From an uncultured Gammaproteobacteria bacterium (GTDB taxonomy: Bacteria; Patescibacteriota; Microgenomatia; Levybacterales; UBA12049): a stretch of DNA of 64,000 bases. The stretch lies in NCBI GenBank assembly GCA_964540055.1, contig CAZILC010000004.1:13745-77744 (forward strand). Reading direction: 5' to 3'. The notes beneath the pieces are model-generated. The model was not told the DNA's origin, searched no databases, and worked only from the letters and a program-made list of their open reading frames with translations. This document shows, in pieces, positions 3,122-48,043 of this stretch; within the stretch, counting starts at the first letter, position 1, and every line of letters begins with the position of its first letter. A program made the translations under genes and the position numbers.

Positions 3122-4906
3122 TTATATATTTTTTAGTTTTCTTGTGACTATAACTCCTATCCCTAAAACAATCGTACAAAGACTTATCATCTTGGAAACG
3201 CTCCTTACAAATGAATCCATATAAATAACCTTTACTAGGTATAACCCTTTCTTTAGAGAAAATGTTATGATTCCTACACTGTTGCTTTCTTGATCTTTAT
3301 AATTAATAGGAATCTTTTTGTTGTTCGCAAATGCCATCCATCCTGGGAAGTAAAAAGTATTTTCCCGTAACGTGACAGGTGTTTCCGCATTAATAATATA
3401 TTCATGTGAGGTTTGTAATCTTGAAAGCTCCAAAAATGTCCCTTTACCAGAAAGAATTTTCATTGGTTCTGTTGGGGGATTTGCAATTATCTTCTGACCC
3501 AGAGATTGGTCATGTTGGTATTGTTTAATAAAGAGAGGATTCCGGGGTTCAAAATATTCGGTATATACAGCATCACCCACCTTGAAAGGATCACCCGTAG
3601 CAGGGACCATATATCTGTTTTCCCAATTAAGTATAGTTGATAAAATAGTTATTATACAAATGATTACAACAACTGAGGGTTTCGTAAAATGTTTGACAAC
3701 AATACCAGCTATAGCAGCCGAGATAAAGGAAATTGGGACAAATAATCTAAACGGTCCTAAGAAAGTATAGAGAAGAGGTACATGTGTCCAGATAAAATAT
3801 GATTGCGAGAGTAGCATAAAAAAAAGTAGAGAGAAATAAAGTAGAAGTACGATGAGAAGCGGTTTCAGTTTAGGTTCAATTTTATTTTTAATGAGAATGT
3901 AGATACTAAACAATATAAGTAAGATATGTGGGTATCCAATAATCAATCGAATGTCTCCCTGATGTCCTTGGAAGAGAAAGCCGTAGGCAAACGGAGAAAT
4001 GAAATATTCCCAAATTGGAAAAAAATTTCCAAGTCCGGGGTGGATAAAAACACTACTCCACCATGTATATTTCACCTCAAGTAGTGCCGGTAACCAGTAA
4101 TAAGCTGATAGTAATATTCCATACGGTATAGATGCTAGAGGTATAAGTATGTCTTTACTATTTCTTTTCTTTTTTCGGCGCCAGAGTATGAAACAATATA
4201 GAATTGTTAGAGGCAATGAAAAGTAAGTTGTGCTCGAATGAGAAAGGAGAATAAACCAGACAGAAATTGCCTCAAGGAAAAAATACTTCAATTCTCCTCT
4301 TTCTACAAGTCGCTTCATGAAAAGAAATAGCAACGGTATAAAAACAAAAGAAGTCACCTCACCTACAGATCCTCGAAATTCAAGATTTATTAAATTAAAA
4401 GGGGCAAAGAGATAAAAAATAGCAGCAACGAATCCTGCTGCTGAACCTAATTCTTCTTTAGCCCAGAGATACATGGTAATTCCTGACACTATAAAAGTTG
4501 CCGCTAATTCGAGCTTTAAACTGGTTAAAAAGGAAAATCCAAGTAAATGGAAAAATGAGGCAAGATAATAGGGAAGTACATATTCAATTTCGTATATTGG
4601 GCATCCATACTCACCGCAAAGATTTCCTGCCCATTGGGGTATAATATTTCCTTGCTGCAGGTTGTAGTAAAAATCCATGAATTGAGCAGTATGCGGTCTA
4701 AGATCACCAGCTTGATATGTACCGGGCCTAAAGAGACTGAATGTCGGAATAACGGCAATAATTAAGAGTAAGATGAGACGACTAATGCGTTTTTTAGGAT
4801 AAACAAAACGATAGATTCCAGTCCCGAGTAGAACAATTAACGAGAAAATGACATTAAAAAGAATTATCCAATATGGACCACTTATATCATTTAAGTTTAA
4901 TTGCAT
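3122..4906 (-). CDS. YfhO / 'PTPS-related'-type GT-C-like membrane protein, paralog 1 of 3
   Basis: 594 aa. It aligns by eye over its full length with 37965..39737 and 40761..42581. Shared motifs are the GDLxxH loop, YLFAPxxLIxLxFRxSVGEV and C-terminal ENTFYFPGW. Confidence 0.55.
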   Translation of the reverse strand: MQLNLNDISGPYWIILFNVIFSLIVLLGTGIYRFVYPKKRISRLILLLIIAVIPTFSLFRPGTYQAGDLRPHTAQFMDFYYNLQQGNIIPQWAGNLCGEYGCPIYEIEYVLPYYLASFFHLLGFSFLTSLKLELAATFIVSGITMYLWAKEELGSAAGFVAAIFYLFAPFNLINLEFRGSVGEVTSFVFIPLLFLFMKRLVERGELKYFFLEAISVWFILLSHSSTTYFSLPLTILYCFILWRRKKKRNSKDILIPLASIPYGILLSAYYWLPALLEVKYTWWSSVFIHPGLGNFFPIWEYFISPFAYGFLFQGHQGDIRLIIGYPHILLILFSIYILIKNKIEPKLKPLLIVLLLYFSLLFFMLLSQSYFIWTHVPLLYTFLGPFRLFVPISFISAAIAGIVVKHFTKPSVVVIICIITILSTILNWENRYMVPATGDPFKVGDAVYTEYFEPRNPLFIKQYQHDQSLGQKIIANPPTEPMKILSGKGTFLELSRLQTSHEYIINAETPVTLRENTFYFPGWMAFANNKKIPINYKDQESNSVGIITFSLKKGLYLVKVIYMDSFVRSVSKMISLCTIVLGIGVIVTRKLKNI

Positions 4907-5019: not shown

Positions 5020-5832
5020 TTATTTATAAACTTCAGTAATAAATTGAAGAGTTTGCTCAATAACTTTTTCATTTGATTCTGAGTCATCTCTTCGCATTTC
5101 AATGGATAACCACTTGTCAAAATGTAATTTTTTTAAAACGTCAACTATTTTTTTATGATCAACATCAGTTGTTCCAATCTGTTTAAGACCTCTTTCACTG
5201 ATATGGAAATGTTGAAGATAAGATAAGGCATTTGTTAGAGCCGAATTGTAATCCTCACTATTTATCGTTAACGCTCCGGAATCCAGATGTAATCTAAAAT
5301 TTGGATGATTTACATGTTTTACTAAAACGATACCTTCTCTTGTGGTGTTGATAAAATTTGTGCCATACGTTTTGGGAATTGGTTCTATGCAAAAATAGAT
5401 ATTAAATTCCTGTGCAAGTTCACCAACTTTATAAAAAAAATCTGTAGCAATATCTTGTGCTTCATCTATCCCAACTTCTCCTCTGTCTCTGTTACGAGGA
5501 GATCCAAAAATAATATCTTTGACTCCTAAGATTTCACATACTTGTAACATTTTTTCAATATATGCAAGGGTACTTTTTCTTTTTTCACTTGTTTCAAATA
5601 TAGTGAGCTCCGGATGACCAAATAATAATGATTGTATTGAAACGATAGCAATTCCCTCATTATTCCAAAACTTCCTGTAATTTCTAATTCTATCGGTAGA
5701 TTCCTTTGTGGGTTCTTTCCAAATCATAGTTGGCGCGAGTTCAATTGCTTGTAAAGAATATTTTTTTAACAGTGCTACTATTTGTTTGTCTTCATCAGTA
5801 TTCCACGCGATATTTGAGATAGCAATTTTCAT
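5020..5832 (-). CDS. Sugar phosphate isomerase/epimerase, xylose-isomerase-like TIM barrel
   Basis: 270 aa. The N-terminus MKIAISNIAWN...AIELAP and the overall pattern fit the AP_endonuc_2 / TIM-barrel family. Its start overlaps the upstream stop (TAATG). Confidence 0.55.
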   Translation of the reverse strand: MKIAISNIAWNTDEDKQIVALLKKYSLQAIELAPTMIWKEPTKESTDRIRNYRKFWNNEGIAIVSIQSLLFGHPELTIFETSEKRKSTLAYIEKMLQVCEILGVKDIIFGSPRNRDRGEVGIDEAQDIATDFFYKVGELAQEFNIYFCIEPIPKTYGTNFINTTREGIVLVKHVNHPNFRLHLDSGALTINSEDYNSALTNALSYLQHFHISERGLKQIGTTDVDHKKIVDVLKKLHFDKWLSIEMRRDDSESNEKVIEQTLQFITEVYK

Positions 5833-6815
5833 TATTCTTTAATAGTCAATAATTTTCCATTTTGCACAATTGATTGTTCTGCCAAATCAAGCAGTTGTGT
5901 TACTTTTAATCCTAATTCCAATCCCGAATAGGTTATTGCTCTATTAATCGTAATCGCTTTTGCAAATTCTATTATTTCATTTTCAAGTGAAGTTTTAGAA
6001 CTATACTTCGGGTAAGAAATTTTAGCATTTTGGTATCGTATATAAAGATCTTGATTGGGCACAATATCTTTGTAATAAATAATCTTCTTTGTGGCTTCTG
6101 CATCATACATAATACTGTCAGATTCTCCTGTAATAACAAGCTTTCTTCTTTTCTCAGGGAATATCCAATTGAGTCTAATATATGCATAGGTTTCATCTGC
6201 AAACTCGAGTTTAAGAGAAGTTGTGTCAAAAAATTTCGTTTTTGGATAGAGTAAATTTTGGCCCCATGCACTGATTGCTTTCGGATAGCTTTGCGAAATA
6301 TCCACACATAATGAAATTGCATGTGACCCAATATCCCACAATGCAGATGTGTTTTTTCTTAACAAACCATAACTCGTTCCTTCATAATCAATGTAGCGAA
6401 TTTTACCTATATTTTTTACAAGTTCTTTTGTCTTTATATAAGCCGGATCAAAAAGATATACATGTCCTACCTGTAACTTACCTTTAGATTTTTTTGGTAA
6501 TGAAAGTAATTTTTTTGCATTTTGATAATCTTCACTTAAAGGTTTTTCAACCAATACCGTAAAACCTCTTTTCAAAAATTCATAGGTAATTTCATCGTGC
6601 GTTGCATTAGGTGTTGCAATAATTACTCCATCAATATCAGAAAACTTGAATAAATATTGGTAATTTGTGGTTTTAATATAATCTCCCGGGTAAGCTGCAA
6701 AACTTTTTTCATTTGTAGCGCAGAGATATTTAATGCGGATATCAGGAAGTTTTTTAGCTGTCGCTAAATAATTCTTCCCCCAGGAACCAACGCCAATTAA
6801 AGCAAGATTAATCAT
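5832..6815 (-). CDS. Gfo/Idh/MocA-family NAD(P)-dependent sugar oxidoreductase
   Basis: The Rossmann N-terminus MINLALIGVGSWGKNY and later EKPL fit the family. I prefer the ATG at 6815, 2 nt after the upstream stop, over the ORF-track start at 6839. Confidence 0.65.
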   Translation of the reverse strand: MINLALIGVGSWGKNYLATAKKLPDIRIKYLCATNEKSFAAYPGDYIKTTNYQYLFKFSDIDGVIIATPNATHDEITYEFLKRGFTVLVEKPLSEDYQNAKKLLSLPKKSKGKLQVGHVYLFDPAYIKTKELVKNIGKIRYIDYEGTSYGLLRKNTSALWDIGSHAISLCVDISQSYPKAISAWGQNLLYPKTKFFDTTSLKLEFADETYAYIRLNWIFPEKRRKLVITGESDSIMYDAEATKKIIYYKDIVPNQDLYIRYQNAKISYPKYSSKTSLENEIIEFAKAITINRAITYSGLELGLKVTQLLDLAEQSIVQNGKLLTIKE

Positions 6816-6817
6816 AG

Positions 6818-7876
6818 TTAATTTCCTTCCCGAACCCATTCAATTGTTCTTTTTAGCCCGCTTTCCAAATTTATTTGGGGAGAATATCCTGATAATTCTT
6901 TAACTTTGGTGATATCCGGACATCTTCTCTTTGGCTCATCATTTGGATACAAATCAGGATATTTTATTCTTTTTATTTTAAGGGAGTTATTAAATAACTT
7001 ATTCATTTTTTGCGCGAGTTGATTGACAGATACTTCATCTGTATTATTTCCAATATTATAGGCCTCACCATTTTTAGATGAAAGTAAAACTTTAAGTATA
7101 TAAACTATGGCATCAGCGATATAACAATAGCTTCTTGTTTGTTCCCCCTTCTCATACACCTGTAACTCTTGACCATTTATCGAATTAAAAACAAATGAGG
7201 GAATTACTCTAAAATCGTCTTTATGGATTCCTGGACCATAGACATTAAAAGGACGAACCGTTTTTACCGGAGTCTTAAACTTATCAAAATAGACCATGCA
7301 TAAAGTTTCACCAAGTCTTTTTGATTCATCATAACATGACCTTGGACCGGTACACGATACATTTCCGTAGTAATCTTCAGTTGTTGGTACATGTTTATTA
7401 TCCGGATCGCCGTAAATTTCACTTGATGAAAAAAATAAAAAGCTTTGTACTTTTTTCTTTTTTGCATACTCCAGTAAATTTCTTGTACCATTTATCGTGA
7501 CATCAATTGTTTCAAGTGGAAATTGACGATAATATCTTGGTGAAGCAATACCGGCTGCATGCATAATGTAATCAACTTTTTTTCTAATAGCGATAGGTTG
7601 TGAAACATCTGCTTTGATAAAGGTAAAATATTTTTTGTCGAGTTCAAGTTTTGCCACACGGCTGCTTTTACCGGTGAGATAATTATCAATTGAAATTACT
7701 TTGCATTTTTGTTTGAGCTTTTTATTATTTAATTCATTGATGACTGCAAGGATATAACTGCCCAAAAATCCAGCACCACCCGAAATAAGAAGCGTTTTAC
7801 TTTCTAATTTTTTAAAATCTTTTCCTAACGCTGAAATAATTTCATCAATATCCTGAGCAATAATTTGGGATTTCAT
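6818..7876 (-). CDS. UDP-glucuronate decarboxylase (UXS / ArnA-C-terminal-like) extended SDR
   Basis: Motifs are GGAGFLGS and SSSEIYGDP...TEDYYGNVSCTGPRSCYDESKRLGE, which closely parallels the UXS signature STSEVYGDP...GPRACYDEGKR. The ATG at 7876 forms an ATGA overlap with the stop of the upstream gene. The longer 7972 start lies inside that gene. Confidence 0.7.
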   Translation of the reverse strand: MKSQIIAQDIDEIISALGKDFKKLESKTLLISGGAGFLGSYILAVINELNNKKLKQKCKVISIDNYLTGKSSRVAKLELDKKYFTFIKADVSQPIAIRKKVDYIMHAAGIASPRYYRQFPLETIDVTINGTRNLLEYAKKKKVQSFLFFSSSEIYGDPDNKHVPTTEDYYGNVSCTGPRSCYDESKRLGETLCMVYFDKFKTPVKTVRPFNVYGPGIHKDDFRVIPSFVFNSINGQELQVYEKGEQTRSYCYIADAIVYILKVLLSSKNGEAYNIGNNTDEVSVNQLAQKMNKLFNNSLKIKRIKYPDLYPNDEPKRRCPDITKVKELSGYSPQINLESGLKRTIEWVREGN

Positions 7877-9123
7877 TTTTTGATTTTTGGTCGTGGGACC
7901 GGTACAATAAATTTTCCTCCTTTTTTTGAGAAGCTCTGATTCTTTGCAATAATTGAATCGGCAAAATTCCAAGCCAATATCAAAAGATAATCAGCTTTGT
8001 CATTACTAAAAGTCGCGAAATCTTTGACAGGTATTCTTTTCCCGGGGGAATAAAGTCCTTGTTTCCACGGACTATCATCAACGATATACTCAAGCGTCTC
8101 TCGACCGATATTGAAATAATTTAGAAGCGTATTCCCTTTTGCCGGTGCACCATACCCGACAATTTTTCTTCCTGATTTTTTCAATTTATATAAAAGGTTC
8201 AAAAGAAGTATTTTATTTTTTTCTATCTCTTTGGCATAATCGGTATATGTACTTATCTTATTAAGTTTACTTGCTTTTTCCTTAGTAATAAATTTTTTAA
8301 CAGTTGGTCGAACTTTCACATCACTTTCTTTTCTTGCAATATATACTCGTATACTGCCCCCGTGTACCGAAACTTTCTCTACATCGACAACATGCATTTC
8401 AAACCTGTCAAAGATTCGTTGTAATGTCTCAACGCGCCAGTAAGACATATGTTCATGATAAATCAAATCAAAATATCTTTTTTGAATAAAATCAATAAGA
8501 TATGGTGCTTCAATCATAAATACACCATTTTTACCAAGCAGCATTTTAACTGAAAGAATTATTTCATCCAGATCATCAATGTGAGCAAAAACATTGGTTG
8601 CCGTAATTAAGTCTGCTAAGCCATATTTCTGTTTTATTTGCTTTGCAACTTTTCTGTTCATAAACTCTGCAATTGTGTCAATTCCAATGTTCTGTGCAAC
8701 AGTAGCAATCTTTTTTGCAGGCTCTACTCCCAAAACCCTGATCTTTTTTTCTTTAAATGGTTTAAGAAGTATTCCGTCATTGCTACCAATATCAATTACT
8801 AATGATTCATTGTTCAATTGAAATTGTTTTTCAGCTTTGTCTGCAAATTGGATAAAATGATCAATAAAAACTTGCGATGTTGAAGAAACATACACATAGT
8901 TGGAGAATAAAAGCTCCGAAGATATGCTATGACCTAATTGGAGAAAAGTACACGTATTACAAAAATTTACTTCAAGCGGATAATATTTTTCATCTAATTC
9001 AACCTGTTTTTCCGTTAAAAAAGCATTAGCAAGAGGTGTCGATCCAAGTATGATGACCGTTGTGAGATTGGTGTTCAGACATACTCGGCAGCTTTTCCTT
9101 TTATAAATTTGAGGCTGTATCAT
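7873..9123 (-). CDS. NDP-ketosugar C-methyltransferase (Zn-ribbon + class I SAM MTase + C-methyltransferase C-domain), paralog 1 of 3
   Basis: It has an N-terminal CxxC...CxxC (CRVC...CNTC) plus VIDIGSNDG, TATNVFAH and YHEHMSY. This is the TylCIII/NovU-type architecture. Confidence 0.7.
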   Translation of the reverse strand: MIQPQIYKRKSCRVCLNTNLTTVIILGSTPLANAFLTEKQVELDEKYYPLEVNFCNTCTFLQLGHSISSELLFSNYVYVSSTSQVFIDHFIQFADKAEKQFQLNNESLVIDIGSNDGILLKPFKEKKIRVLGVEPAKKIATVAQNIGIDTIAEFMNRKVAKQIKQKYGLADLITATNVFAHIDDLDEIILSVKMLLGKNGVFMIEAPYLIDFIQKRYFDLIYHEHMSYWRVETLQRIFDRFEMHVVDVEKVSVHGGSIRVYIARKESDVKVRPTVKKFITKEKASKLNKISTYTDYAKEIEKNKILLLNLLYKLKKSGRKIVGYGAPAKGNTLLNYFNIGRETLEYIVDDSPWKQGLYSPGKRIPVKDFATFSNDKADYLLILAWNFADSIIAKNQSFSKKGGKFIVPVPRPKIKK

Positions 9124-9497
9124 ACAATCTTAATTCTGATAGTATCTTCTTCATATTTGTCCATGCTCCGTTCTTCTGTTGTTATAGCTATAAAAATAGA
9201 ATCTTGAGTAAATTCCATTGCATGAATTTCTCCGGGGGGTGTATACACAATTTCTCCTTTATGAACAACAACTTTTTTCGGCTTCTTTTTTTCATCGCTA
9301 GTGTAATAGTAGTTCATTCCCCCTTCAAGCATATAAGAATAATGTGCATCTTTTTTGTGATAATGATTTGCCCGTATAGCACCTTTTTTGCAGGTAATAA
9401 GAACAGCGCTGTTGAAAGATGTATCTCCTTCAATTAAATGGTACATTTTGCCTCTGGCATCGGTAAAAAAGGGTTTTATTTTTTTAACAGTTGGCAT
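9120..9497 (-). CDS. Cupin-fold sugar 3,4-ketoisomerase / WxcM-FdtA-like protein
   Basis: 125 aa with FTDARGKMYHL and RANHYHKK motifs. It has an ATGA overlap with the C-methyltransferase. Confidence 0.5.
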   Translation of the reverse strand: MPTVKKIKPFFTDARGKMYHLIEGDTSFNSAVLITCKKGAIRANHYHKKDAHYSYMLEGGMNYYYTSDEKKKPKKVVVHKGEIVYTPPGEIHAMEFTQDSIFIAITTEERSMDKYEEDTIRIKIV

Positions 9498-9690: not shown

Positions 9691-11811
9691 TTATTTCATG
9701 AATTTTTTTAGCATAGTCCAAAAAGAATCATAAAATATTAGTCCTATCATTATACAAACTGCTATGATTTGAAACGCTATACTCCATGATAAATAGTTTG
9801 GATGATAAATTAATGTTATGTCATTTTTACCTTTTTGAAGTTTAAAAGTTGTGAATCCAAAAGCTGCTTGGGATGTGGATTTTGAATATCCGTTTATATA
9901 AAGTTTCCAGTCAGGAGTGTACGTGCTACTCCAAATTAATTGTTGATTTACTTTTCTAGAGTTAACAGTTGCCGATATGGAATTAGGTTCAAATTGCGTA
10001 ATTTTTATTGTTTTTGATAATACTGCAATTGGTTTCTGATTAGTGTCGGGAAAATAAAAAATGTAATGTGTTAGATAAAGGAACTCCTTCTCCCCTAAAG
10101 TCATTCGGAGATGATGCATAGATGGCGCGCTTAATACTGAACGTTCCAAAGAAGACGTAGGAATTTTGGTAATCTGAGAGTTAACTGAGTTTGCTCTGAT
10201 ATTTGATTTGTAGGTAAAATTGTATCGTGCGTTTTTATTTAATTGTGCTACAAAGCTTTTTGCATCCGTATTTATAAAACTTGCCGCCCTATCACGGTAC
10301 GATAAATAATGAAATGAATTCGGAATATATTCGGTAAGACCTACAAAGACAAACAAAATAACAATAAACTTTTTGTCAAACTTTTTAATAGATTTATAAA
10401 CCAAAAAACCATATGAGGTAATAAATATGAATGTCAATAAAAAGATCAATTGTAAAGTGAAAAAATTGTAGGGATGAGGTGATGATTTAACAATTAACAA
10501 AATTATTGAAACTGTCAATAAAACCAATATTATAATTTGTGCTAGTAAAAGCTTTTTAAGCTCTTTTTTATCGAATTGTTTATATAATATCCCAAGACCG
10601 AAGCAAGTTAAGGTTATCATAAAAAATTCAACAAGTACCAAATACCAACCATGCCATCGTGAAAACTGTAAAAATGGCAAGAACTTTGTAGCAAAAAATC
10701 CGGTAGCATAATTACTATCTAAACTTATCGCAAATATAAAAATACTAAAAAAAGCCAAAAGAAGCGTTTGACTAAGATATTTTTTATGAAAGAGCGAATA
10801 AAGAAGCAAACAAAGATTAAAAATTCCTATGTAAATCATATAGGTATTACTTGGTGAAGGAATAATAGCAAACCAAGGAATAAATGAAGGAAAATTATTA
10901 ACAAAAAATAGGGTAAAAATTTCTTTCATATGAGCTGCACCTGAAAAAGGGCTATAAGGAACCCAACGAAGAGAATTTAAAGATAATTTTGTAAATTCCC
11001 ACAACTGCAACCACTCCAAATTTGAGATTCCGATAAAAAGTAAAATTGCCAGAAAAACAGGAACTGACATTTTAACAAGATAGATAAATCTTTTGGAATA
11101 TTTTCCTTGTAATAAAACAAAAAAATGTTCCGAATAAACGAATAGGAAAATTATTGGTAAAAATAAAATGTTCAATCCCAAATACCCTGTCGAAAAAATA
11201 ATTAGTAAAAAAAGCGCGAACAAACCAATATGTCTTTTTGAACCCCCAAGTATTAGTTTTAGCGAATAGGCGAGAAACGGAATCATACTCATTGTTGTCA
11301 GTGGATTTTCTTCAGGAACCGTGGTCACAATCATAGGACAAATACTGAAGCAAAACGCTCCATAGAGAGCAATCCATCTGTTTACATACATTTTAAGCCA
11401 ATAAAACATTCCTAAAAAGCACAGTATTTGTACTATGAAAACGTCAATGGTATATATAGTCATTGTATAGTTACCGAAAAAACTTGAAAAAAGAACTAGT
11501 GGAGAAATGTTATAAAAACTAACATTAAACGAATCAGGCATTCCGTTAAATCTCCATTGATCCCATAATGGATAAATTCCTAAACGAAATGCATTACTTG
11601 TGATAAATTTGTTCGGATAATCATAAACAAGTGAATCTCCAAAAGTAATATGATTACTAGAGGTGCCATAATAAGAATAGAAAATGACAAAAGAAAATCC
11701 AAGCAATAGAATAAACATTAGATAAAAAATGATATTTCCGAAGCGATTTTTTTTATTTTTATTCATTAAAACACAAAAATATTTACCATCGATATTTATG
11801 TTATCATTCAA
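9691..11811 (-). CDS. YfhO-like GT-C membrane protein
   Basis: 706 aa and highly polytopic, with an FGDSLVYDYP...YPLWDQWRFNGMP loop and a C-terminal YTPDWKLYINGY beta-domain plus a final TM. The listed start is TTG; an in-frame ATG lies at 11766. Confidence 0.55.
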   Translation of the reverse strand: MNDNINIDGKYFCVLMNKNKKNRFGNIIFYLMFILLLGFSFVIFYSYYGTSSNHITFGDSLVYDYPNKFITSNAFRLGIYPLWDQWRFNGMPDSFNVSFYNISPLVLFSSFFGNYTMTIYTIDVFIVQILCFLGMFYWLKMYVNRWIALYGAFCFSICPMIVTTVPEENPLTTMSMIPFLAYSLKLILGGSKRHIGLFALFLLIIFSTGYLGLNILFLPIIFLFVYSEHFFVLLQGKYSKRFIYLVKMSVPVFLAILLFIGISNLEWLQLWEFTKLSLNSLRWVPYSPFSGAAHMKEIFTLFFVNNFPSFIPWFAIIPSPSNTYMIYIGIFNLCLLLYSLFHKKYLSQTLLLAFFSIFIFAISLDSNYATGFFATKFLPFLQFSRWHGWYLVLVEFFMITLTCFGLGILYKQFDKKELKKLLLAQIIILVLLTVSIILLIVKSSPHPYNFFTLQLIFLLTFIFITSYGFLVYKSIKKFDKKFIVILFVFVGLTEYIPNSFHYLSYRDRAASFINTDAKSFVAQLNKNARYNFTYKSNIRANSVNSQITKIPTSSLERSVLSAPSMHHLRMTLGEKEFLYLTHYIFYFPDTNQKPIAVLSKTIKITQFEPNSISATVNSRKVNQQLIWSSTYTPDWKLYINGYSKSTSQAAFGFTTFKLQKGKNDITLIYHPNYLSWSIAFQIIAVCIMIGLIFYDSFWTMLKKFMK

Positions 11812-11886
11812 AGTATGATTGAAACAATATTATTAACTGAAATATAAAAAAATAATTTTTAGTAAGATTTCGTGTGCATATACATT

Positions 11887-12951
11887 TTAGAAAGAAGAAG
11901 CCATTTTTATCCCAAATTCAATGCGACCTCGTAATATTTCTCGGTTTTTATGATGATATATACGCGCAACAGCTTTCGCAAGAGAAAGACGAAGGTAATA
12001 ATACCAATACCTTTGCCAAAAATTCTTTGGGAGTTTTTTATTTTGACAATACCCTTCAAAAAGAGCGTCAAACCAGGACTGATTCCCATAAGCACCGCTC
12101 CCGAAAAAAGCGAGGTCATAAATAAAATCACCTGATAATGCATCTCCCCAATCGATAAATACTATTTCCTTATTTCTTACGAATATATTATGATTAGCGA
12201 GATCGCCATGAAGTAATACAGGCTCTATTTTTTTTAATAAAAAGCTTTGTTTGGTAAGAATATCCTTTATTATCTTTCTCTCCTTCACGGAAATTACATT
12301 TTGTTTCTCACAGAATTGCAAATGTGAATCAAGATTGCAAAAAATAAATTGTTCCCAGCTTTCATATGCTCCTGTCAAAAATGTTTTATTTACTTTGAGA
12401 AGATAGGGACCGTATTTTTTTCTTTTTATCTGATGGATTTTTGCAAGTAATTTCCCTGCATTTTGATGAAATTCTTTAGGAATTTTTTTTTGTAATGAAA
12501 TCGTATATAGGGTATTACCATACTGATATTCACTTATTTCATAATCTGTTGGAATTACTTTTCTTGATACATCAACAAAAAGAATATTTTTTCGCGGAAT
12601 ATTTTTTGTTTCGAAAAGTTCATCAATTTGTTTTTCGATAAAAAACTGAAACTCTTTATGTATCCGGGGAAAACTATTAAAACGGACTACATGTGTTACA
12701 TTATTATTATCAGTTACGAAATATACTTTGTGAAGACTCGTATTTGATACCTGTTTAATTGTTCTCGGTTCTCTACCAAAATAAACCTTATAAAGTTTTT
12801 GTATATTCTTTATTGAAATTTCTATTGGGGAATTATGCCTTATTAAACGTGGAAAGTCAGTGGTAGTAATAAAGAGTGATTTTCTAGAATTTTCAAATTC
12901 CAGTATATCTTCTTTATAATCACGCAACACCTTAGAAATTGTCATAACCAA
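11887..12951 (-). CDS. APH/choline-kinase-fold small-molecule (sugar?) kinase
   Basis: LLHGDLANHNIFV matches the HGDxxxxN catalytic loop and FIDWGDA is the DxG-like metal-binding motif. Confidence 0.6.
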   Translation of the reverse strand: MVMTISKVLRDYKEDILEFENSRKSLFITTTDFPRLIRHNSPIEISIKNIQKLYKVYFGREPRTIKQVSNTSLHKVYFVTDNNNVTHVVRFNSFPRIHKEFQFFIEKQIDELFETKNIPRKNILFVDVSRKVIPTDYEISEYQYGNTLYTISLQKKIPKEFHQNAGKLLAKIHQIKRKKYGPYLLKVNKTFLTGAYESWEQFIFCNLDSHLQFCEKQNVISVKERKIIKDILTKQSFLLKKIEPVLLHGDLANHNIFVRNKEIVFIDWGDALSGDFIYDLAFFGSGAYGNQSWFDALFEGYCQNKKLPKNFWQRYWYYYLRLSLAKAVARIYHHKNREILRGRIEFGIKMASSF

Positions 12952-13858
12952 GTTGTTGGCTAATTACTCGTGTATACATTTTAATTTCTGCATATTCCTG
13001 TTTTGTTAATTCTTTACTTGTTTCTTTATTTTCGTGACTTGTAGGTGTTTGAATTGTTCCCCAAGGTGTTGTAAAAGTAAGTCTTTTTCCATTCCATGAA
13101 CGATACGCGAGGCTGTCAGAATAGGTAATTCCGAGTTTTTTAACAAGAGGTAGAAAAAAATTCTCTTTTTTTGCAACGAGGTCTTCAAAAGTTACAAGAT
13201 GAAAATTTTTAGGATATTTTTTTGCAAAAATAAGCGCGTAGTATTGTACAATACTCCATGTAAGAGCATATCTTTTAAGAGAATAAGGAACCGGACGTCT
13301 TTTTGTCTCAGCATATGCGGAATAAGGATTACGAACAATATGGACAATATGCGCTTGCGGAAAATCCGCAAAAATCTTATCAGCATCGACACCAATGATA
13401 GGGCTATAACCCATATAGACTTTTTCCCTACCGCTACGGTTATAATCTTTCCAGGCTTCAAAAGTGGAAATAAAAAAAGATTCGATGATATTTTCTCGTG
13501 TTCTTGGTGACTTTTTAAGTAACTGTAAAAAAATATTTTTACGATCACTATCTGTTAATTTCATTTCTGCGTCTTTAAATTTACTTGCAAGAGGTGTTTT
13601 AATATGTCTTTTGAGTTCTTCGTCGATAATATTTTCGTAATCATTTTCAAATGTATCATTGAGAGAAAATTCAGGCCAACGGTATTTGACAGGAAAACTA
13701 CTTTTCAAATAATCATTAACAAATGGTGTCCCTAACTGAGACTCGAAAGGATATACAAATAATTGTGGGTGACCATCAAAAAAACGATGTATTGTGTTTC
13801 CTCCATTCTCATACATCGCTGAGATCATGATAAATTTGAATGGTAATTTGTTCAACAT
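12932..13858 (-). CDS. Sulfotransferase-family protein (putative)
   Basis: 308 aa and soluble. HIVHIVRNPYSAY resembles the 3'-phosphate-binding RDPxD-type motif, and there is an N-terminal P-loop-like segment SAMYENGGNTIHR. The assignment is moderate only. Confidence 0.4.
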   Translation of the reverse strand: MLNKLPFKFIMISAMYENGGNTIHRFFDGHPQLFVYPFESQLGTPFVNDYLKSSFPVKYRWPEFSLNDTFENDYENIIDEELKRHIKTPLASKFKDAEMKLTDSDRKNIFLQLLKKSPRTRENIIESFFISTFEAWKDYNRSGREKVYMGYSPIIGVDADKIFADFPQAHIVHIVRNPYSAYAETKRRPVPYSLKRYALTWSIVQYYALIFAKKYPKNFHLVTFEDLVAKKENFFLPLVKKLGITYSDSLAYRSWNGKRLTFTTPWGTIQTPTSHENKETSKELTKQEYAEIKMYTRVISQQLGYDNF

Positions 13859-13890
13859 AATTTATATTGTTATAATACACTATTTTATAA

Positions 13891-14586
13891 TTAGTGAAAA
13901 GGCCTAAATCGAAAAATAATCATATATTTAAGCATTTCGAAAATATTTTTTATTGTAGTTGATGAAACACCAGTAGATCTTTTACGTGAAGTAATAGGGA
14001 TTTCAATTATTTTTATTTTTCCTCTAATTTTAAGGAGCAATTCTAAATCAAAACTAACATTTGGTGAAATAAAAGATACTGAAGAGATAACATCTGAAGG
14101 GAGTATTTTTGGCGTACCATTGATATCTCTATAGCGAATGTTAAAAAGTATAAAGGCAAGATTATTATAGAAATTTGAATTGATTTTTCTGATAAGATTT
14201 TCTCGTGTAATGCGTTTCGTTTTAACCAAAACATTTTTTTTTGTGGATGCCAAACGATACATCTTGGGAATAATTGCAGGATCAATTTGATTATCTGAGA
14301 CGGTATAACAAATATATTTTCCTTTCGCATGCCTAATTCCTTTTGCTACTGCTTTTCCCCAGCCTTTCTCAGAGGTATACAGGTAATAATTTTTGTAAAC
14401 TTTTATTAGTTTTTTAAGCACTTCAAAACTTTTATCTGTAGAGCCGTTTTCAATACACAAAACCTCATAAGAGATGGTTGTCTTTGACAGGTAATGATGG
14501 ATATCATGGACAACCTTTTGGATTACTTGTTCTTCATTGTGGACAGGAACAATAATTGATAAGTCAGGTAATGTATTTCTAGACAT
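13891..14586 (-). CDS. Short GT2 glycosyltransferase (DPM1/ArnC/GtrB-like polyprenyl-phosphate sugar synthase candidate)
   Basis: 231 aa with LSIIVPVHNEE, ENGSTD and VSDN (DxD-like). There is no C-terminal TM. Confidence 0.6.
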   Translation of the reverse strand: MSRNTLPDLSIIVPVHNEEQVIQKVVHDIHHYLSKTTISYEVLCIENGSTDKSFEVLKKLIKVYKNYYLYTSEKGWGKAVAKGIRHAKGKYICYTVSDNQIDPAIIPKMYRLASTKKNVLVKTKRITRENLIRKINSNFYNNLAFILFNIRYRDINGTPKILPSDVISSVSFISPNVSFDLELLLKIRGKIKIIEIPITSRKRSTGVSSTTIKNIFEMLKYMIIFRFRPFH

Positions 14587-14821
14587 GTGATTTGTATTAA
14601 TCCATTGCCATTATACATACTGCTCAAAAATATTGCTATTCTTTCGCACAATGATTCCCAACAATAACCATCAGCAATCTCTTCCGTCCTGTTTTGATGT
14701 AAGTCCAATCACCTTAGTTAGTACAATGGGACGGTAATTTACCGGCCACACTAGGTGGAATTAGAATAAATATAGATTGTATTGCTCAAATAAGCATTAT
14801 ATAATAGCAAGCATTGTGAGT

Positions 14822-15775
14822 ATGTCTACAAAAAGCAAAGGACAGGTTTTTATAACCGGTGCAAGCGGTTTTGTCGGAGCAAATCTTACAAGAGCTTTAA
14901 TAAAAAAAAATTACGCAACGCATATTCTCACAAAATCAAAAATTTTCCCATGGAGATTACAAGGTCTTGAAAATAAAATTAGCAATCATATTGGAGATAT
15001 AACTGATTTTTCCTCAGTAAAGAAGACCTTAACAAGCGTTAAACCTGATTATATTATCCATCTTGCAGTCTACGGTGCCTATCACTTTCAAACCGAATTG
15101 GATAAAATTGTAAATGTTAATATTGTCGGTGTAAGAAATCTTCTTGATGCGTCACGTGATATTCCCTATAAGTGTTTTATTAATACTGGAAGCTCATCGG
15201 AATATGGTATTAAAAATGCTCCGATGAAAGAAAATGATTTTTGTGACCCGATTAGTTATTATGCAGCCACCAAACTCGGTGCAACACATATTGGTAAAGT
15301 ATTTGCTCTCATGAATAACAAGCCGGTAGTAACTTTTCGTTTATTTTCAGTGTATGGGCCTTATGAAGCCCCAACAAGACTTGTACCTGTAATGATGAAA
15401 TCGTTAATCACGAGACAAACTATTAATCTCTCTCCTGGAAAACAAAGACGTGATTTTATTTATGTTGAGGATGTTTGTGATGCGTATCTTAAAGCATTAA
15501 CAGTAGGTAAAAAAATCACAGGGGAGATTTTAAACATAGGAACAGGAAGAGAATATACAAATGAAGAAGTCGTCAAAGCACTTTTTGCGGTTACCGGACA
15601 AAAAACAAAGATTGCTAAAGGAGCATATCCCAAAAGACCCTGGGAAGCATTACATTGGAAAGCAAGTATATCCCATACGAAGGAACTATTAGGTTGGACT
15701 CCTAAAGTTACTCTTGACAAAGGCTTGCAAGGAACATATTCTTGGTTTGAAAAAAATGTCCATCTATATCAATAA
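14822..15775 (+). CDS. NAD-dependent nucleotide-sugar epimerase/dehydratase (extended SDR)
   Basis: VFITGASGFVGANL and YYAATK (YxxxK) fit the family. I prefer the ATG at 14822 over the TTG at 14777. Confidence 0.7.
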   Translation: MSTKSKGQVFITGASGFVGANLTRALIKKNYATHILTKSKIFPWRLQGLENKISNHIGDITDFSSVKKTLTSVKPDYIIHLAVYGAYHFQTELDKIVNVNIVGVRNLLDASRDIPYKCFINTGSSSEYGIKNAPMKENDFCDPISYYAATKLGATHIGKVFALMNNKPVVTFRLFSVYGPYEAPTRLVPVMMKSLITRQTINLSPGKQRRDFIYVEDVCDAYLKALTVGKKITGEILNIGTGREYTNEEVVKALFAVTGQKTKIAKGAYPKRPWEALHWKASISHTKELLGWTPKVTLDKGLQGTYSWFEKNVHLYQ

Positions 15776-15777
15776 AA

Positions 15778-16506
15778 ATGTCGAAATTTTCCCTTAAAAA
15801 GTTAACAAAAGAGCAAAAAAAGTTAAGAAAAAGAATCCTTGAAGTAAGTTATGAACAAAAACTTTCTCATATAGGATCTTGTCTCAGTGTCATCGATATT
15901 ATTGCAGCTATTTATAAAATAAAAAAACCTACAGAGAAATTTATTTTATCTAATGGTCATGCCGGAGTTGCCTGGTATATTATTTTGGAAAAATATAAAA
16001 TTATCGATAGTTCCCAGTTAAAAACATTGGGTGTTCATCCCGACAGAAATCCTCTGATTGATATCCATGTTTCAACAGGAAGTTTGGGCCAAGGATTCCC
16101 CATTGCACTTGGCATGGCTCTTGCCAATCGTCATAAAAACGTCTACTGCATGCTATCAGATGGTGAAAGTACCGAAGGAAGTATCTGGGAGACCCTCAGA
16201 ATTATTCAAGAAAATAACGTACTTAATTTAAAAACAGTGATAAATGTTAATGGCTGGTCAGCTTATGCTAAAGTAGCTATTCCTCCTCTGGTAAAACGAT
16301 TTAAAGGTTTTGATTTTAATGTAGATAAAATTGACGGTCATGACATAAAAAAAATTGAACAAGCATTGAAAAAGAAAAATACAAAACCAACAATAATTTT
16401 TGCATATACACAAGTTGAACAATTTTCTTTTCTCAAAGGTTTGGATGCACATTATTATGTCATGAATCAAGACGACTTTGAAAAAGCGCTAAAAAAATTA
16501 ACATGA
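15778..16506 (+). CDS. Transketolase-like ThDP enzyme, N-terminal (PP-binding) subunit
   Basis: 242 aa with SHIGSCLS, SNGHAG and LSDGESTEGSIWE (GDG-type ThDP/Mg motif). It has an ATGA overlap with the next ORF. Confidence 0.65.
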   Translation: MSKFSLKKLTKEQKKLRKRILEVSYEQKLSHIGSCLSVIDIIAAIYKIKKPTEKFILSNGHAGVAWYIILEKYKIIDSSQLKTLGVHPDRNPLIDIHVSTGSLGQGFPIALGMALANRHKNVYCMLSDGESTEGSIWETLRIIQENNVLNLKTVINVNGWSAYAKVAIPPLVKRFKGFDFNVDKIDGHDIKKIEQALKKKNTKPTIIFAYTQVEQFSFLKGLDAHYYVMNQDDFEKALKKLT

Positions 16507-17003
16507 GCAAACATAAATTTCACCGAATGCGGCCTCTTTTTGCCACTAGCATTCACGAACATATGAAAAAAAACAAAGACATATGGGTAATTGTCGGCGA
16601 TTTCGGTTATCGCATGTGGGACGATGTAAAAAAAGATTTCCCGGATCGTTTTATTAATGTTGGTGCATCTGAGCAAGCTATGATCGGAATTGCCGTTGGA
16701 CTAGCTCTTGAAGGGAAAATTCCTGTTGTTTATACAGCCACAACTTTCCTTCTCTATAGACCTTTTGAGACTATCCGTAATTATATAAATTATGAATCAA
16801 TCCCTGTACATCTTATCGGATCGGGAAGAAAAAAAGACTATAAGCATGACGGTATATCCCATTGGGTGCTTGAAGATAAAAAGGTTATGTCTTTATTTAA
16901 AAATATTTCCGCTCATTGGCCGAAAGATGAAAATGAAATTCCAAGACTTGTCGAAAAAATGATTATCAGTAACAAACCATGGTATATTAATTTAAAACGT
17001 TAA
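16503..17003 (+). CDS. Transketolase-like ThDP enzyme, pyrimidine-binding subunit, lacking the usual C-terminal domain
   Basis: 166 aa with FINVGASEQAMIGIAVGLALEG. It ends at KPWYINLKR, about where the Pyr domain normally ends. Confidence 0.55.
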   Translation: MSKHKFHRMRPLFATSIHEHMKKNKDIWVIVGDFGYRMWDDVKKDFPDRFINVGASEQAMIGIAVGLALEGKIPVVYTATTFLLYRPFETIRNYINYESIPVHLIGSGRKKDYKHDGISHWVLEDKKVMSLFKNISAHWPKDENEIPRLVEKMIISNKPWYINLKR

Positions 17004-19691: not shown

Positions 19692-20945
19692 TTACAAACT
19701 TCCCTTTAAGGCCTTTCCTTTCTTGTAATTAATAAAAACAAGCACAACAAACAAAGTTATAAGAGGTATCTCAACAATAACAGATATCACCTGAGCATAT
19801 CCCGCGCCGACGATTCCATAATAATGAACAAATGGAACAACTGCAATTGCAAGAGTTAAAAACCGAATAAAAACGGTAAAACTCACAATCTTTTGTTTAC
19901 TTAACGAGAGAAATAATGCGGAAGAGGGACCCGCAACTGTTCGCAAAACTCCATAAATAATCAATATTTTAAGTACTGGAATTATAGATAACCACTGATT
20001 ACCGAGAAAAATTCGAATTATTTGTTCAGGAAAGAAAAAGATAATGAACCCTAAGAATGATGCTCCAAAAAAGACTAATATAACTGTTTTTAAAAATGCC
20101 TTACTGAGACGTTTTGTATCGTGCGTAATCTTTGTATAAACAGGAAATGCAACACTGCTGACAACATCTGATATTTCAGTAAGAGGAAGAATCGATATTT
20201 TATAGGCCATTTGATATAAGCCTAAACTCGTTGCCCCCAACAATCTTCCTACAACTACGTTATCTAAATTCTCGGCAAAGTAATTAAATATGGTATATCC
20301 TGTGACCCATATTCCTTTATGGAATATTTCCTTAAAATAACTTTTTTCAATCGCAAAACGGGGTCGGGGTTTTATAAAAGTAAGAGATAGAAAAACTTCA
20401 AATAGAGCACTAATTAGCATCCCCCAAACGATGCTATATACAGAGTGAGTTAAAAAAATTACAAAAACTGCAACAGCTGTATCAATAAGATTAAGCCCCG
20501 AGGTAAACCAAAATTGGAGATTAAAATTAAGATCTTTTTGAAATTTTACTTCTGAGGGATTAATAAATCCACGAACAAACGGAACTATACTAATAAAAAG
20601 TAATATACCGAGCGCATCTGGAGTTCTGAAAAAAATAACCATAAGGGGTGTTAATAAAATAATAAAAATAGAGATGAGTAAGCCTCTGATAATTGAAACA
20701 ACCCATGCGGCATTAATATAATCTTTTAAATCTGCCTTTGACTGAATTAAAACAATATTGATACCAGTTTCAGTAATTGTTTCCAGTAATGCCAATAGAA
20801 GTGAGGCAATACCGAAAAGTCCAAACTGCATCGGTGTTAAAAATCGTGCAAGAATAAAAATTTTTACAAATGAAAAACCGCGAAATACAAAGCGTGAACC
20901 AGACATCCAAGATATCCCTTTGATGGTATTTTTAGTATATCCCAT
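19692..20945 (-). CDS. Wzx-type (MOP superfamily) polysaccharide flippase
   Basis: 417 aa with about 12 TM. The N-terminus ...FVKIFILARFLTPMQFGLFGIA is typical of Polysacc_synt proteins. Confidence 0.6.
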   Translation of the reverse strand: MGYTKNTIKGISWMSGSRFVFRGFSFVKIFILARFLTPMQFGLFGIASLLLALLETITETGINIVLIQSKADLKDYINAAWVVSIIRGLLISIFIILLTPLMVIFFRTPDALGILLFISIVPFVRGFINPSEVKFQKDLNFNLQFWFTSGLNLIDTAVAVFVIFLTHSVYSIVWGMLISALFEVFLSLTFIKPRPRFAIEKSYFKEIFHKGIWVTGYTIFNYFAENLDNVVVGRLLGATSLGLYQMAYKISILPLTEISDVVSSVAFPVYTKITHDTKRLSKAFLKTVILVFFGASFLGFIIFFFPEQIIRIFLGNQWLSIIPVLKILIIYGVLRTVAGPSSALFLSLSKQKIVSFTVFIRFLTLAIAVVPFVHYYGIVGAGYAQVISVIVEIPLITLFVVLVFINYKKGKALKGSL

Positions 20946-45980: not shown

Positions 45981-46026
45981 AAAGTCTATTGTACTATATA
46001 AGTCAATAACAAGTACAACTCAACAA

Positions 46027-46056
46027 TTGCCAATACTATAAGCCATGTGATACAAT
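46027..46056 (+). promoter_or_regulatory. Sigma70-like promoter, TTGCCA-18 nt-TACAAT with a TG extension
   Basis: The -10 overlaps the GTG at 46047 offered by the ORF track, which argues for the ATG at 46068 as the true start. Confidence 0.4.
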
Positions 46057-46067
46057 CCTACTTTACT

Positions 46068-47288: not shown

Positions 47289-47308
47289 ACTTATATTCTT
47301 AAATATCA

Positions 47309-47337
47309 TTGACCTAACAAAACGGATAAACTATCAT
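47309..47337 (+). promoter_or_regulatory. Sigma70-like promoter, TTGACC-17 nt-TATCAT
   Basis: It lies 11 nt upstream of the ATG at 47349. Confidence 0.4.
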
Positions 47338-47348
47338 ATAGCTATTAT

Positions 47349-47903: not shown

Positions 47904-47911
47904 CCTTGAGT

Positions 47912-47983
47912 GGACCCGAGAGGATTTGAACCTCTGACCTATGCAATGTGAATGCAGCGCTCTACCGCTGAGCTACGAGTCCG
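47912..47983 (-). tRNA. tRNA-Val (anticodon CAC)
   Basis: The reverse complement folds by hand into a cloverleaf. The parts are acceptor GGACTCG/CGGGTCC, D arm GCTC-AGCGGTA-GAGC, anticodon arm CTGCA-TTCACAT-TGCAT (one C:U at 27:43), variable loop AGGTC and T arm AGAGG-TTCAAAT-CCTCT. The discriminator is A and no CCA is encoded. Confidence 0.85.
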
Positions 47984-48037: not shown

Positions 48038-48043
48038 ACGTAG

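Follow-up and report, generated by a model that had tools for sequence, protein, structure and literature searches.

What sugar, if any, is made by a run of four genes encoding a short glycosyltransferase (GT2), a sulfotransferase-fold protein (ST), a kinase and a large membrane protein, and are these four genes the whole of the unit that makes it? They lie within the 64-kb stretch of DNA that was analysed (the window), part of a Patescibacteria genome, probably of Levyibacteriota. An earlier note had assigned them to the GT2, sulfotransferase, APH kinase and YfhO families. Pfam searches agree with all four assignments, and the open reading frames are confirmed as co-directional on the minus strand. 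Divergent from them is a second group of genes (14777–17003), encoding an SDR enzyme and a split transketolase. The features are as follows.

9691–11811, minus strand: YfhO-like polytopic membrane protein (706 aa), presumed GT-C transferase (PF09586)
11887–12945 (ATG) or 11887–12951 (TTG), minus strand: APH/ELK-fold small-molecule kinase (PF01636, PF03881)
12932–13858, minus strand: ST (308 aa), encoded by the hallmark gene of the cassette (PF13469 Sulfotransfer_3)
13891–14586, minus strand: short GT2 (231 aa; PF00535, E = 1e-21)
14587–14776: divergent intergenic region between the GT2-ST-kinase-YfhO and SDR-transketolase operons, a presumed shared promoter from the gene layout
14777–15775, plus strand: extended SDR of the NDP-sugar epimerase/dehydratase/reductase family (PF01370, E = 1e-46)
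15778–16506, plus strand: split transketolase, N-terminal (ThDP/PP) subunit (PF00456, PF13292)
16503–17003, plus strand: split transketolase, Pyr-domain subunit, 166 aa, truncated (PF02779, E = 6e-20)

The GT2 gene is separated from that of ST by a 32-nt gap, and the kinase gene from that of the YfhO-like protein by 75–120 nt. The ST and kinase genes overlap. The 20-nt overlap described previously holds if the kinase begins at TTG 12951 (354 aa), but becomes 14 nt from ATG 12945 (352 aa), the start annotated in public assemblies and preserved in homologous loci. The YfhO-like protein would have 691 aa if ATG 11766 were its start, and the SDR has 317 aa from ATG 14822. The gene order is identical in a second public assembly. 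No terminator-like intergenic sites were found in the four-gene operon, and the numbers of promoter and terminator matches at the locus, including 14587–14776, are at chance level.

The survey of the partners of ST covered 82 non-redundant loci, which represent more than 15 phyla; many of the contigs are short, so the counts are lower bounds. The SDR is present in 65 loci, the transketolase Pyr/C subunit in 55, its N subunit in 51 and the GT2 in 55. An APH kinase is found in 36 and a DUF4915 protein in 30, never both. Judged by this gene content, the conserved unit comprises the GT2, ST, either the kinase or DUF4915, the extended SDR and the split transketolase. We therefore read the four genes, tentatively and with a probability of about 0.45, as one half of an uncharacterised sugar-biosynthesis cassette, with the divergent SDR and split transketolase as the other half, acting by the route set out below.

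In some genomes the genes beside the cassette include those for glucose-1-phosphate cytidylyltransferase and a 4,6-dehydratase, for a larger GT2 of conventional type and for a Wzm/Wzt exporter. In one locus (L002) a glucose-1-phosphate cytidylyltransferase (TIGR02623, 345 bits, above cutoff) and a CDP-glucose-4,6-dehydratase-like SDR are encoded upstream of ST, and in another (L005) a dTDP-glucose-4,6-dehydratase-like SDR follows the kinase. Loci from Acidobacteriota and Planctomycetota lack the short GT2, and encode a conventional one together with a nucleotidyltransferase and an ABC exporter. Judged by these neighbours, the target of the modifications is probably a nucleotide-sugar and not the lipid-linked sugar.

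A second explanation, close to that of the earlier note, takes the four genes as complete in themselves, with a canonical PAPS-dependent sulfotransferase and the kinase decorating a polyprenyl-phosphate-linked sugar made by the GT2 and transferred by YfhO. The family assignments, the DPMS-like GT2 and the short or overlapping junctions are in keeping with this, and sat, cysC and cysN can be encoded in CPR genomes. However, ST is linked to the SDR and split transketolase rather than to YfhO, DUF4915 takes the place of the kinase in many loci, and the loci lacking the short GT2 indicate that a lipid-linked sugar is not required as the substrate of the modification. Moreover an invariant Glu replaces the P-loop Arg/Lys of ST. 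The unit was thus drawn too narrowly, missing the SDR/transketolase linkage and including a kinase that is optional, and we regard this explanation as unlikely.

ST matches Sulfotransfer_3 with 47.9 bits (cutoff 27) and contains the sequence HIVRNPYSAY. Its AF2 model (pLDDT 89.8) is predicted to adopt the sulfotransferase fold; the top Foldseek matches are the CurM sulfotransferase (4gbm, E = 1e-8), the olefin synthase (OLS) sulfotransferase (4gox) and TPST1/2, with E values of 1e-8 to 1e-6 and TM scores of ~0.56–0.59. ST resembles these proteins in its R-x-P-Y-S sequence, a probable counterpart of their 3′-phosphate motif, and in a Glu at the position of the base. In contrast, sequence identity is 12–17%, and where their P-loop is PRSG(S/T)T, ST has YENGGN. 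The context also differs, being glycan biosynthesis here and a PKS or protein substrate there.

The earlier suspicion that this is an unusual sulfotransferase is borne out by the 5′-PSB loop. This has the sequence M15-Y-E17-N-G-G-N21-T, of which Y-E17-N-G-G-N21 is invariant among all 29 family members aligned. The canonical loop (PKxGTT or PRSG[ST]T, with Lys/Arg followed by Ser/Thr) is not present. In a profile alignment with TPST1, E17 is aligned with the P-loop Arg, while the two Thr correspond to G20 and N21. To our knowledge Arg or Lys occupies this P-loop position in every characterised sulfotransferase, where it is needed for sulfuryl transfer. A comparison of clades shows that distant relatives of ST retain QRSGG[ST]. 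Of the two PAPS-binding loops named in the original proposal, the canonical 5′-PSB loop is absent, and of the 3′-PB loop the Arg (R176) is present. R176-N-P is invariant, and aligns with RHPYS of CurM and RDGRAS of TPST. The 3′-phosphate-binding motif is taken as Arg and Ser ~8 residues apart; in ST the Ser position is occupied by D/E184, with the invariant T185 next and K186 and R188 after it. The putative catalytic base, E39, is invariant and is conserved in all three clades; its distance beyond the P-loop position, 21–22 residues, matches that between R78 and E99 of TPST2. Two further basic residues, R25 and K93, are invariant in a clade-specific manner.

Sequence identity of ST between loci is 50–66%, compared with 22–47% for its neighbours, and the protein is almost the same whether the kinase or DUF4915 accompanies it. 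This is consistent with a fixed, small soluble substrate. It also argues that the kinase cannot be the source of the donor, since loci without the kinase have essentially the same ST.

ST might alternatively have ceased to sulfate, using another 3′-phosphorylated nucleotide donor (possibly in a metal-dependent manner) or catalysing an 'activating' or eliminating reaction as part of a ThDP-dependent pathway to a branched sugar, with the kinase or DUF4915 providing alternative activation steps. Activating or eliminating enzymes of this fold have precedents in the CurM sulfotransferase, retinol dehydratase and LGS1. Throughout a large clade Arg is replaced by Glu/Asp, an invariant and derived change; QRSGG persists in the relatives that are most distant, and the nearest solved structures are the activating CurM and OLS enzymes. 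The extreme conservation of ST fits such a change, as does the loss of canonical motifs in the neighbouring GT2, and genes for PAPS synthesis are co-located in 0 of 84 loci. Yet ST retains the 3′-PB Arg and the catalytic-base Glu, the invariant R25 and K93 could replace the lost Arg, and the cassette encodes no alternative donor pathway. While this explanation is possible, we consider it doubtful. Within the cassette reading, a rearranged PAPS site in which R25 and K93 compensate for E17 is slightly more likely than a new donor. CysC and CysD homologues were found neither in the 64-kb window nor in 1.39 Mb of homologous loci (84 loci). This is weak evidence because such genes usually sit elsewhere in the genome; the earlier argument from a streamlined organism lacking PAPS is weak.

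The kinase matches APH (PF01636, E = 2e-17) and Fructosamin_kin (PF03881, E = 2.5e-9), and has the motifs HGDLANHN and IDWGDA. H246-G-D248...N253 and D265-W-x-D268 are invariant in sets of 15 and 36 homologues, and the catalytic motifs (HxDxxxxN and the Mg-binding Asp) are intact. In many loci the kinase ATG sits within conserved TAT-GA(Y/D) codons of ST; the kinase start either overlaps the C-terminal codons of ST by 14 or 17 nt, or follows the stop by no more than 10 nt. From this arrangement the kinase is evidently translationally coupled to ST.

In its AF2 model (pLDDT 91.6) the closest folds are APH(4)-Ia (TM 0.63/0.74, 18% identity) and, equally good, fructosamine-3-kinase. The fold, the HxDxxxxN motif and the D-x-G-type motif are shared with these and with choline/ethanolamine kinases, while identity to such APH/ELK-fold kinases is no more than 18%. 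Could it therefore be an aminoglycoside or macrolide resistance enzyme, adjacent to ST by chance in a cluster with no joint function? Its best solved structural neighbour is the hygromycin B kinase APH(4)-Ia, and there are weak sequence matches to Mph(B). However, the scores fall far below the curated NCBIfam resistance cutoffs (APH_3p 24 versus 205, Mph(B) 22.6 versus 615, APH(3′)-IIIa 16.7 versus 530), and indeed below that of every curated family. Across many phyla the kinase gene begins before the ST stop codon, and 36 loci preserve the two genes as a pair. Such a role is highly improbable. The kinase belongs to no resistance family, clustering with antibiotic kinases being the outcome that had been named as refuting the original proposal; it is a distinct family found only adjoining the ST gene. 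Decoration with phosphocholine or phosphoethanolamine, also suggested earlier, is unsupported, the 1–45 kb island having no cytidylyltransferase and no gene with a LicD-type Pfam match.

The best PDB match of the short GT2 is Pyrococcus Dol-P-Man synthase (5mlz, E = 1.7e-13; residues 9–222 aligned with 25–243), the alignment reaching through the juxtamembrane interface helices. GtrB (5ekp) and ArnC (9hwj) are also matched. It has no TM segments, the 231-aa protein stopping past the amphipathic helices. It is 44–47% identical to the ST-adjoining GT2s of five other loci (L005, L006, L008, L010 and L015), and in the family D154, N156 and K160 show little or no variation. We assign it as a DPMS/GtrB/ArnC-like catalytic domain, a conserved member of the cassette. 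With a YfhO-like GT-C following, a route through a lipid-linked sugar is plausible, as had been proposed. At the position of the DxD motif the window GT2 has V96-S-D98 where DPMS has D-A-D; the consensus in 42 cassette GT2s is N-S-A, with Asp in only 11. Glycosyl transfer to polyprenyl phosphate is insecure because most cassette GT2s lack this motif.

The YfhO-like protein matches PF09586 with 50.9 bits (cutoff 28.5), over residues 592–678 only, and NCBIfam PgfM2 weakly, with E = 6e-6; 13 TM segments are predicted from hydropathy. It gave no tblastn match in the 84 cassette loci. Proteins with Pfam-detectable YfhO or PMT_2 domains flank the cassette in four loci (L009, L015, L050 and L081), and polytopic membrane proteins do so in 40 of 59 long loci. 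As far as such searches indicate, the YfhO gene itself is not conserved with the cassette, and GT-C-like membrane proteins often flank it. No ORF of at least 110 aa between 1 and 45 kb has a Pfam match to a GtrA/GtcA-type flippase. A Wzx-like protein is encoded at 19692–20945, the only candidate of that kind in the same 1–45 kb.

A DPMS/GtrB/ArnC-type GT2 beside a large polytopic GT-C-like protein is the arrangement of known three-component glycosylation systems (CsbB/GtcA/YfhO of Bacillus and Listeria, PgfS/PgfM of Streptococcus mutans, GtrA/B/V and ArnC/ArnEF/ArnT), and the Arn pathway, too, has enzymes for sugar-nucleotide tailoring encoded alongside. The present GT2 differs from theirs in being short, without TM helices and with a degenerate DxD; there is no adjoining GtrA/GtcA, and conservation across loci does not extend to the GT-C partner. 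The ST-fold protein, kinase, SDR and split transketolase are found in none of the known systems.

The best PDB matches of the SDR are UDP-GlcA 4-epimerase (6zl6) and dTDP-glucose 4,6-dehydratases, and that of the transketolase N subunit is the split-chain transketolase 6yak (E = 1.8e-21). In the N subunit the motifs H-I-G, G-H, GSLGQG, (S/G)DGE..EG, N and DGH are conserved (51 homologues), and the Arg10 and Glu57 conserved among 55 Pyr-subunit homologues are kept in the window copy. The pair has the ThDP/Mg motif, the catalytic His residues and the cofactor-activating Glu. The Pyr homologues are ~300–310 aa in length and include PF02780, while the window copy has 166 aa and lacks Transketolase_C, of which no remnant was found downstream.

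On the cassette reading the likely product is a deoxyhexose, branched or extended by two carbons, which would bear sulfate and/or phosphate and reach the envelope on a polyprenyl-phosphate carrier. SDR enzymes would oxidise or dehydrate an NDP-hexose to a keto-deoxy intermediate, to which the ThDP-dependent split transketolase would add a two-carbon unit, and the cassette SDR would then reduce or epimerise the product. ST and its coupled kinase would esterify hydroxyls of the soluble intermediate with sulfate and phosphate, which might be lasting decorations or leaving groups. The DPMS-like GT2 would load the sugar onto polyprenyl phosphate and, after flipping, the YfhO-like GT-C would move it to an envelope acceptor.

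The entry-substrate genes of L002 and L005, the conserved transketolase and kinase motifs, the DPMS-like GT2 and the GT-C neighbours speak for this scheme, as do the fold of ST, its retention of R176 and E39, and its coupling to the kinase. Against it stand the substitution in ST of Glu for Arg/Lys, and of Gly and Asn for the two Ser/Thr, the GT2 DxD that is mostly missing, the Pyr subunit of the window without its C domain, the lack of an adjoining GtrA/GtcA flippase and, weakly, the lack of co-located cysC/cysD; in addition no published biochemistry of the members was found.

The sequence of keto-deoxy NDP-sugar, ThDP-dependent C2 addition and reduction follows the logic of CDP-yersiniose (YerE/YerF) and branched octose biosynthesis. 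In some cassette loci, likewise, genes for glucose-1-phosphate cytidylyltransferase and a 4,6-dehydratase accompany those for a ThDP enzyme and a reductase-type SDR. For its ThDP enzyme the cassette has a split transketolase/DXS-like protein, whereas that of yersiniose is an acetolactate-synthase-like flavoenzyme; the cassette has no E1/E3 3-deoxygenation genes, and has ST and the kinase or DUF4915 in addition. No description of the cassette or of its glycan structure was found in the literature. The cassette is widespread and uncharacterised, and its ST lacks the residue that known sulfotransferases use for the sulfate donor.

Four co-directional genes lie on the minus strand of the window, as the earlier note had described:

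14586–13891, minus strand: GT2, 231 aa (PF00535, E = 1e-21)
13858–12932, minus strand: Sulfotransfer_3-type protein (ST), 308 aa (PF13469, 47.9 bits)
12951/12945–11887, minus strand: APH-fold kinase (PF01636, E = 2e-17)
11811–9691, minus strand: YfhO-like membrane protein, 706 aa (PF09586, 50.9 bits)

All four matches exceed the Pfam gathering score, bearing out the families proposed from the sequence, and that to PF09586 covers the last 87 residues only of the YfhO-like protein. NCBIfam holds no model that finds the ST, and gives sub-threshold matches only for the kinase. No terminator-like site was found between the genes of the operon, though the counts from the promoter and terminator scan are at chance level. 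The overlap between ST and kinase is 20 nt, as first reported, if counted from a TTG, but only 14 nt from ATG 12945, which is the conserved start. In many loci this ATG is embedded in TATGA, where the conserved ST-terminal codons Tyr305–Asp/Glu (TAT GAx) create it; with TAC as the tyrosine codon, the kinase instead begins just past the ST stop, with a gap of ≤10 nt. The start of the kinase (12932–12945 in the window, and in homologous loci) is thus tied to conserved residues of its neighbor.

The ST is the signature of a larger cassette. It has 3,359 relatives in the database at E ≤ 1e-3, and the family is present in at least 268 of ~185,000 species genomes. Carriers include Levyibacteriota, Gottesmanbacteria, Gammaproteobacteria, Planctomycetota, Solirubrobacterales, Melainabacteria, Bacteroidota, Acidobacteriota, Babeliales and one Micrarchaeota archaeon, at 50–66% ST identity. 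Matches also come from Chthonomonas, Hyphomicrobium, Variibacter and Taibaiella MAG relatives. Our comparison covered 82 non-redundant loci, a large number of which are on short contigs. Along with ST, 65 of the 82 have an extended SDR, 55 and 51 respectively the Pyr/C and N subunits of a split transketolase, 55 a GT2 and 22 a sugar-1-phosphate nucleotidyltransferase. An APH kinase lies directly downstream of ST in 36 loci, and a DUF4915/TIGR03032 protein directly upstream in 30. The two are strictly exclusive, co-occurring in none of the 82. Whichever is present, the ST sequence is nearly the same, only one column being type-specific. The window has its SDR and split transketolase genes at 14777–17003, transcribed divergently from the operon. 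The earlier note had not linked them to it, and the functional unit is therefore larger than the four genes that it considered.

The DUF4915/TIGR03032 protein (~400 aa) has the short GT2 on one side and ST on the other in the 30 loci of this second type (L025–L083; e.g. 8743–9996 in L051). Its sole sequence similarity in the PDB, to the chloroplast protein SOQ1, is non-significant (E = 0.15). The YfhO, cupin, C-methyltransferase, Gfo/Idh/MocA and TIM-barrel genes of the window have no detectable homologue in the other cassette loci. Nevertheless, a large polytopic membrane protein is found near the cassette in 40 of 59 long loci. Among ten of these that were scanned, three match YfhO at the C-terminus (loci L009, L015 and L050), one matches PMT_2 and two combine transmembrane segments with TPR. 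Given this count and the mixed families, a GT-C-type partner is recurrent but not orthologous. Our literature search found nothing on the cassette or on DUF4915/TIGR03032. In Actinoplanes a sulfotransferase adjoins a kinase-like gene (wps-1) and there is a split transketolase (wps-2), in separate clusters (PMC13390465). The cassette is widespread, highly conserved and uncharacterized.

The AF2 model of ST (pLDDT 89.8) was compared with known structures using Foldseek. It matches the CurM sulfotransferase, the olefin-synthase sulfotransferase and tyrosylprotein sulfotransferases (TPST) with E = 1e-8 to 1e-6, TM-scores of 0.56–0.59 and 12–17% identity. The family keeps R176-N-P-Y-S, aligned with RHPYS of CurM and RDGRAS of TPST, and an invariant glutamate (E39) in the catalytic-base position. 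The 5′-phosphosulfate loop is an invariant S-A-M-Y-E17-N-G-G-N21-T, and in a profile alignment to TPST1 E17 falls on the catalytic arginine, with G20 and N21 on two threonines. To our knowledge, every characterized sulfotransferase requires its P-loop lysine or arginine for sulfuryl transfer. With E17 in its place the ST belongs to the fold but lacks one of its defining catalytic features. The original assignment as a putative sulfotransferase is upheld by PF13469, by the fold and by E39, but not by the loop expected to bind the donor, which departs at E17, G20 and N21.

When 1.84 billion cluster representatives were searched exhaustively, 783 ST-family clusters emerged at E ≤ 1e-3, of which the full-length ones were aligned. 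The most distant relatives (25–30% identity) keep a Q-R-S-G-G-[ST] loop, a large intermediate clade has N-D-S-G-G-G, and the clade of the window ST has Y-E-N-G-G-N. From this gradient the change from arginine to an acidic residue is both derived and fixed. The two acidic-loop clades together comprise hundreds of clusters at 50% identity, from bacteria, CPR and DPANN. R25 and K93 are invariant solely in these clades, and on the alignment might compensate for the lost arginine. In six of the QRSGG relatives (P0260, P0262, P0263, P0273, P0280 and P0284) the ST domain is C-terminal, with an ABC-transporter ATPase (P0260) or long TPR arrays as the fusion partner.

With E. coli CysC and CysD as queries, neither the window nor 84 related loci (1.39 Mb) gave a match, and CysN gave two of ~30% identity (L007 and L058), which are probably other GTPases. 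The genes sat, cysC and cysN can be present in genomes of CPR bacteria (PMC7906910). That the acidic-loop clade performs non-canonical chemistry is a tentative reading, to which we assign a probability of about 0.3. It is possible, though we would not bet on it, that these proteins use another 3′-phospho-nucleotide donor, or are activating or eliminating enzymes, instead of catalyzing canonical PAPS-dependent sulfation, and that together with the split transketolase, SDR, DxD-poor GT2 and kinase or DUF4915 they make an undescribed class of envelope sugar.

The kinase has an invariant H246-G-D248…N253 and D265-W-x-D268. Its AF2 model (pLDDT 91.6) resembles APH(4)-Ia (hygromycin B kinase) and fructosamine-3-kinase about equally, at ≤18% identity. 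Membership of the antibiotic kinases, which the earlier note had allowed for, is rejected on scores far under the cutoffs of curated resistance models and on gene context; the enzyme is a dedicated partner of ST and not a resistance gene. The suggestion that it adds a phosphocholine or phosphoethanolamine decoration fares no better, as the island of glycan genes has none with LicC- or LicD-type Pfam matches. A few kinase homologues cross-match Choline_kinase, which we judge to be generic to the APH clan. A role in making the donor of ST by 3′-phosphorylation, as in APS kinase, was set aside, as the 30 loci with no kinase have essentially the same ST.

Among solved structures the GT2 is closest to Pyrococcus dolichyl-phosphate-mannose synthase, residues 9–222 aligning with it through the interface helices; GtrB and ArnC come next. 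The position of the DxD motif reads V-S-D in the window and N-S-A in the family consensus, most cassette GT2s have asparagine (V-x-N-G-S) at the usual nucleotide-binding aspartate, and D154, N156 and K160 show little or no variation. The GT-A active site of these enzymes is atypical. Since the GT2 has no transmembrane helices, and V-S-D or N-S-A in place of DxD, its transfer to polyprenyl phosphate is a step that we infer. The SDR resembles UDP-GlcA 4-epimerase and NDP-glucose 4,6-dehydratases. The transketolase subunits resemble a solved split transketolase, with ThDP and catalytic motifs kept. The Pyr subunit of the window (16503–17003, plus strand) has 166 aa and lacks the Transketolase_C domain present in ~55 homologues of ~300–310 aa; no remnant of it is detectable downstream, and the short protein may be a minimal functional form or a product of decay. 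In the Acidobacteriota locus L002 a glucose-1-phosphate cytidylyltransferase (above the equivalog cutoff) and a CDP-glucose-4,6-dehydratase-like SDR lie upstream of ST, and a GT2 of conventional type (371 aa) and a Wzm/Wzt(Wzt_C) exporter adjoin them. In L005, from Levyibacteriota, a dTDP-glucose-4,6-dehydratase-like SDR follows the kinase.

A pathway may be proposed on this basis. An NDP-hexose would be converted to a keto-deoxy intermediate, to which the split transketolase would add a C2 unit, on the model of ThDP-dependent branching in pathways of the yersiniose type. The product would be reduced or epimerized by the SDR, and hydroxyls of the soluble intermediate esterified by ST and kinase. 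Incorporation would be direct, by a conventional GT2 (as in Acidobacteriota), or via a polyprenyl-phosphate carrier and GT-C (as in the window). The earlier note saw here a hint of a phosphorylated or sulfated lipid-linked sugar; its observation holds and its interpretation does in part. ST is highly conserved and independent of the mode of delivery, which argues for the nucleotide-sugar as its substrate rather than a lipid-linked sugar.

The first ~45 kb of the window form a glycan island with 28–35% GC, while 45000–64000 has 38–45% GC and carries core genes (ParB, FtsW, an aminoacyl-tRNA synthetase, transaldolase, FtsZ, FtsA and tRNA-Val). The FtsZ is 86–89% identical to proteins of Levyibacteriota/Patescibacteria MAGs, which places the source of the window among the CPR bacteria. 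The sharp step in GC suggests that the island was horizontally acquired or is a fast-evolving surface-glycan region. Several families are present in multiple copies:

13891–14586, 24005–24712, 32890–33606, 45255–45980: four short GT2s, 22–33% identical
7873–9123, 24709–25965, 30536–31804: three paralogous sugar C-methyltransferases, 35–42% identical
3122–4906, 37965–39737, 40761–42581: three paralogous PTPS_related membrane proteins, 38–42% identical
1413–3077, 26069–27625, 35670–37232: three PMT_2 proteins

These sets (1413–45980) suggest several lipid-carrier/GT-C glycosylation modules in parallel. The genes downstream of YfhO on its strand (5020–9497, minus) encode a cupin (WbuC-like, a weak match), a C-methyltransferase, an SDR of 384 aa, a Gfo/Idh/MocA oxidoreductase resembling UDP-GlcNAc 3-dehydrogenase and a TIM barrel of xylose-isomerase type. 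They look like a second sugar-tailoring set, and are not conserved with the cassette.

The arrangement of GT2 and GT-C is like that of the CsbB/YfhO, PgfS/PgfM, Gtr and Arn systems, and as a system for tailoring and delivery of envelope glycans it is of a known kind and no surprise. It differs in the added cassette, for which our literature search found no described counterpart, and which poses a directly testable enzymological question. Among the genomes with the ST family are those of ultra-small CPR bacteria, Babeliales and one Micrarchaeota archaeon, organisms that attach to hosts by their surfaces. If its product is a sulfated, phosphorylated or C2-branched sugar, the cassette would be a new way of diversifying envelope glycans, and a very widespread one. 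It would give functions to three orphan families, the YENGGN clade of the sulfotransferase fold, its partner kinase and DUF4915/TIGR03032, and would tell whether that fold works without its hallmark P-loop arginine or lysine.
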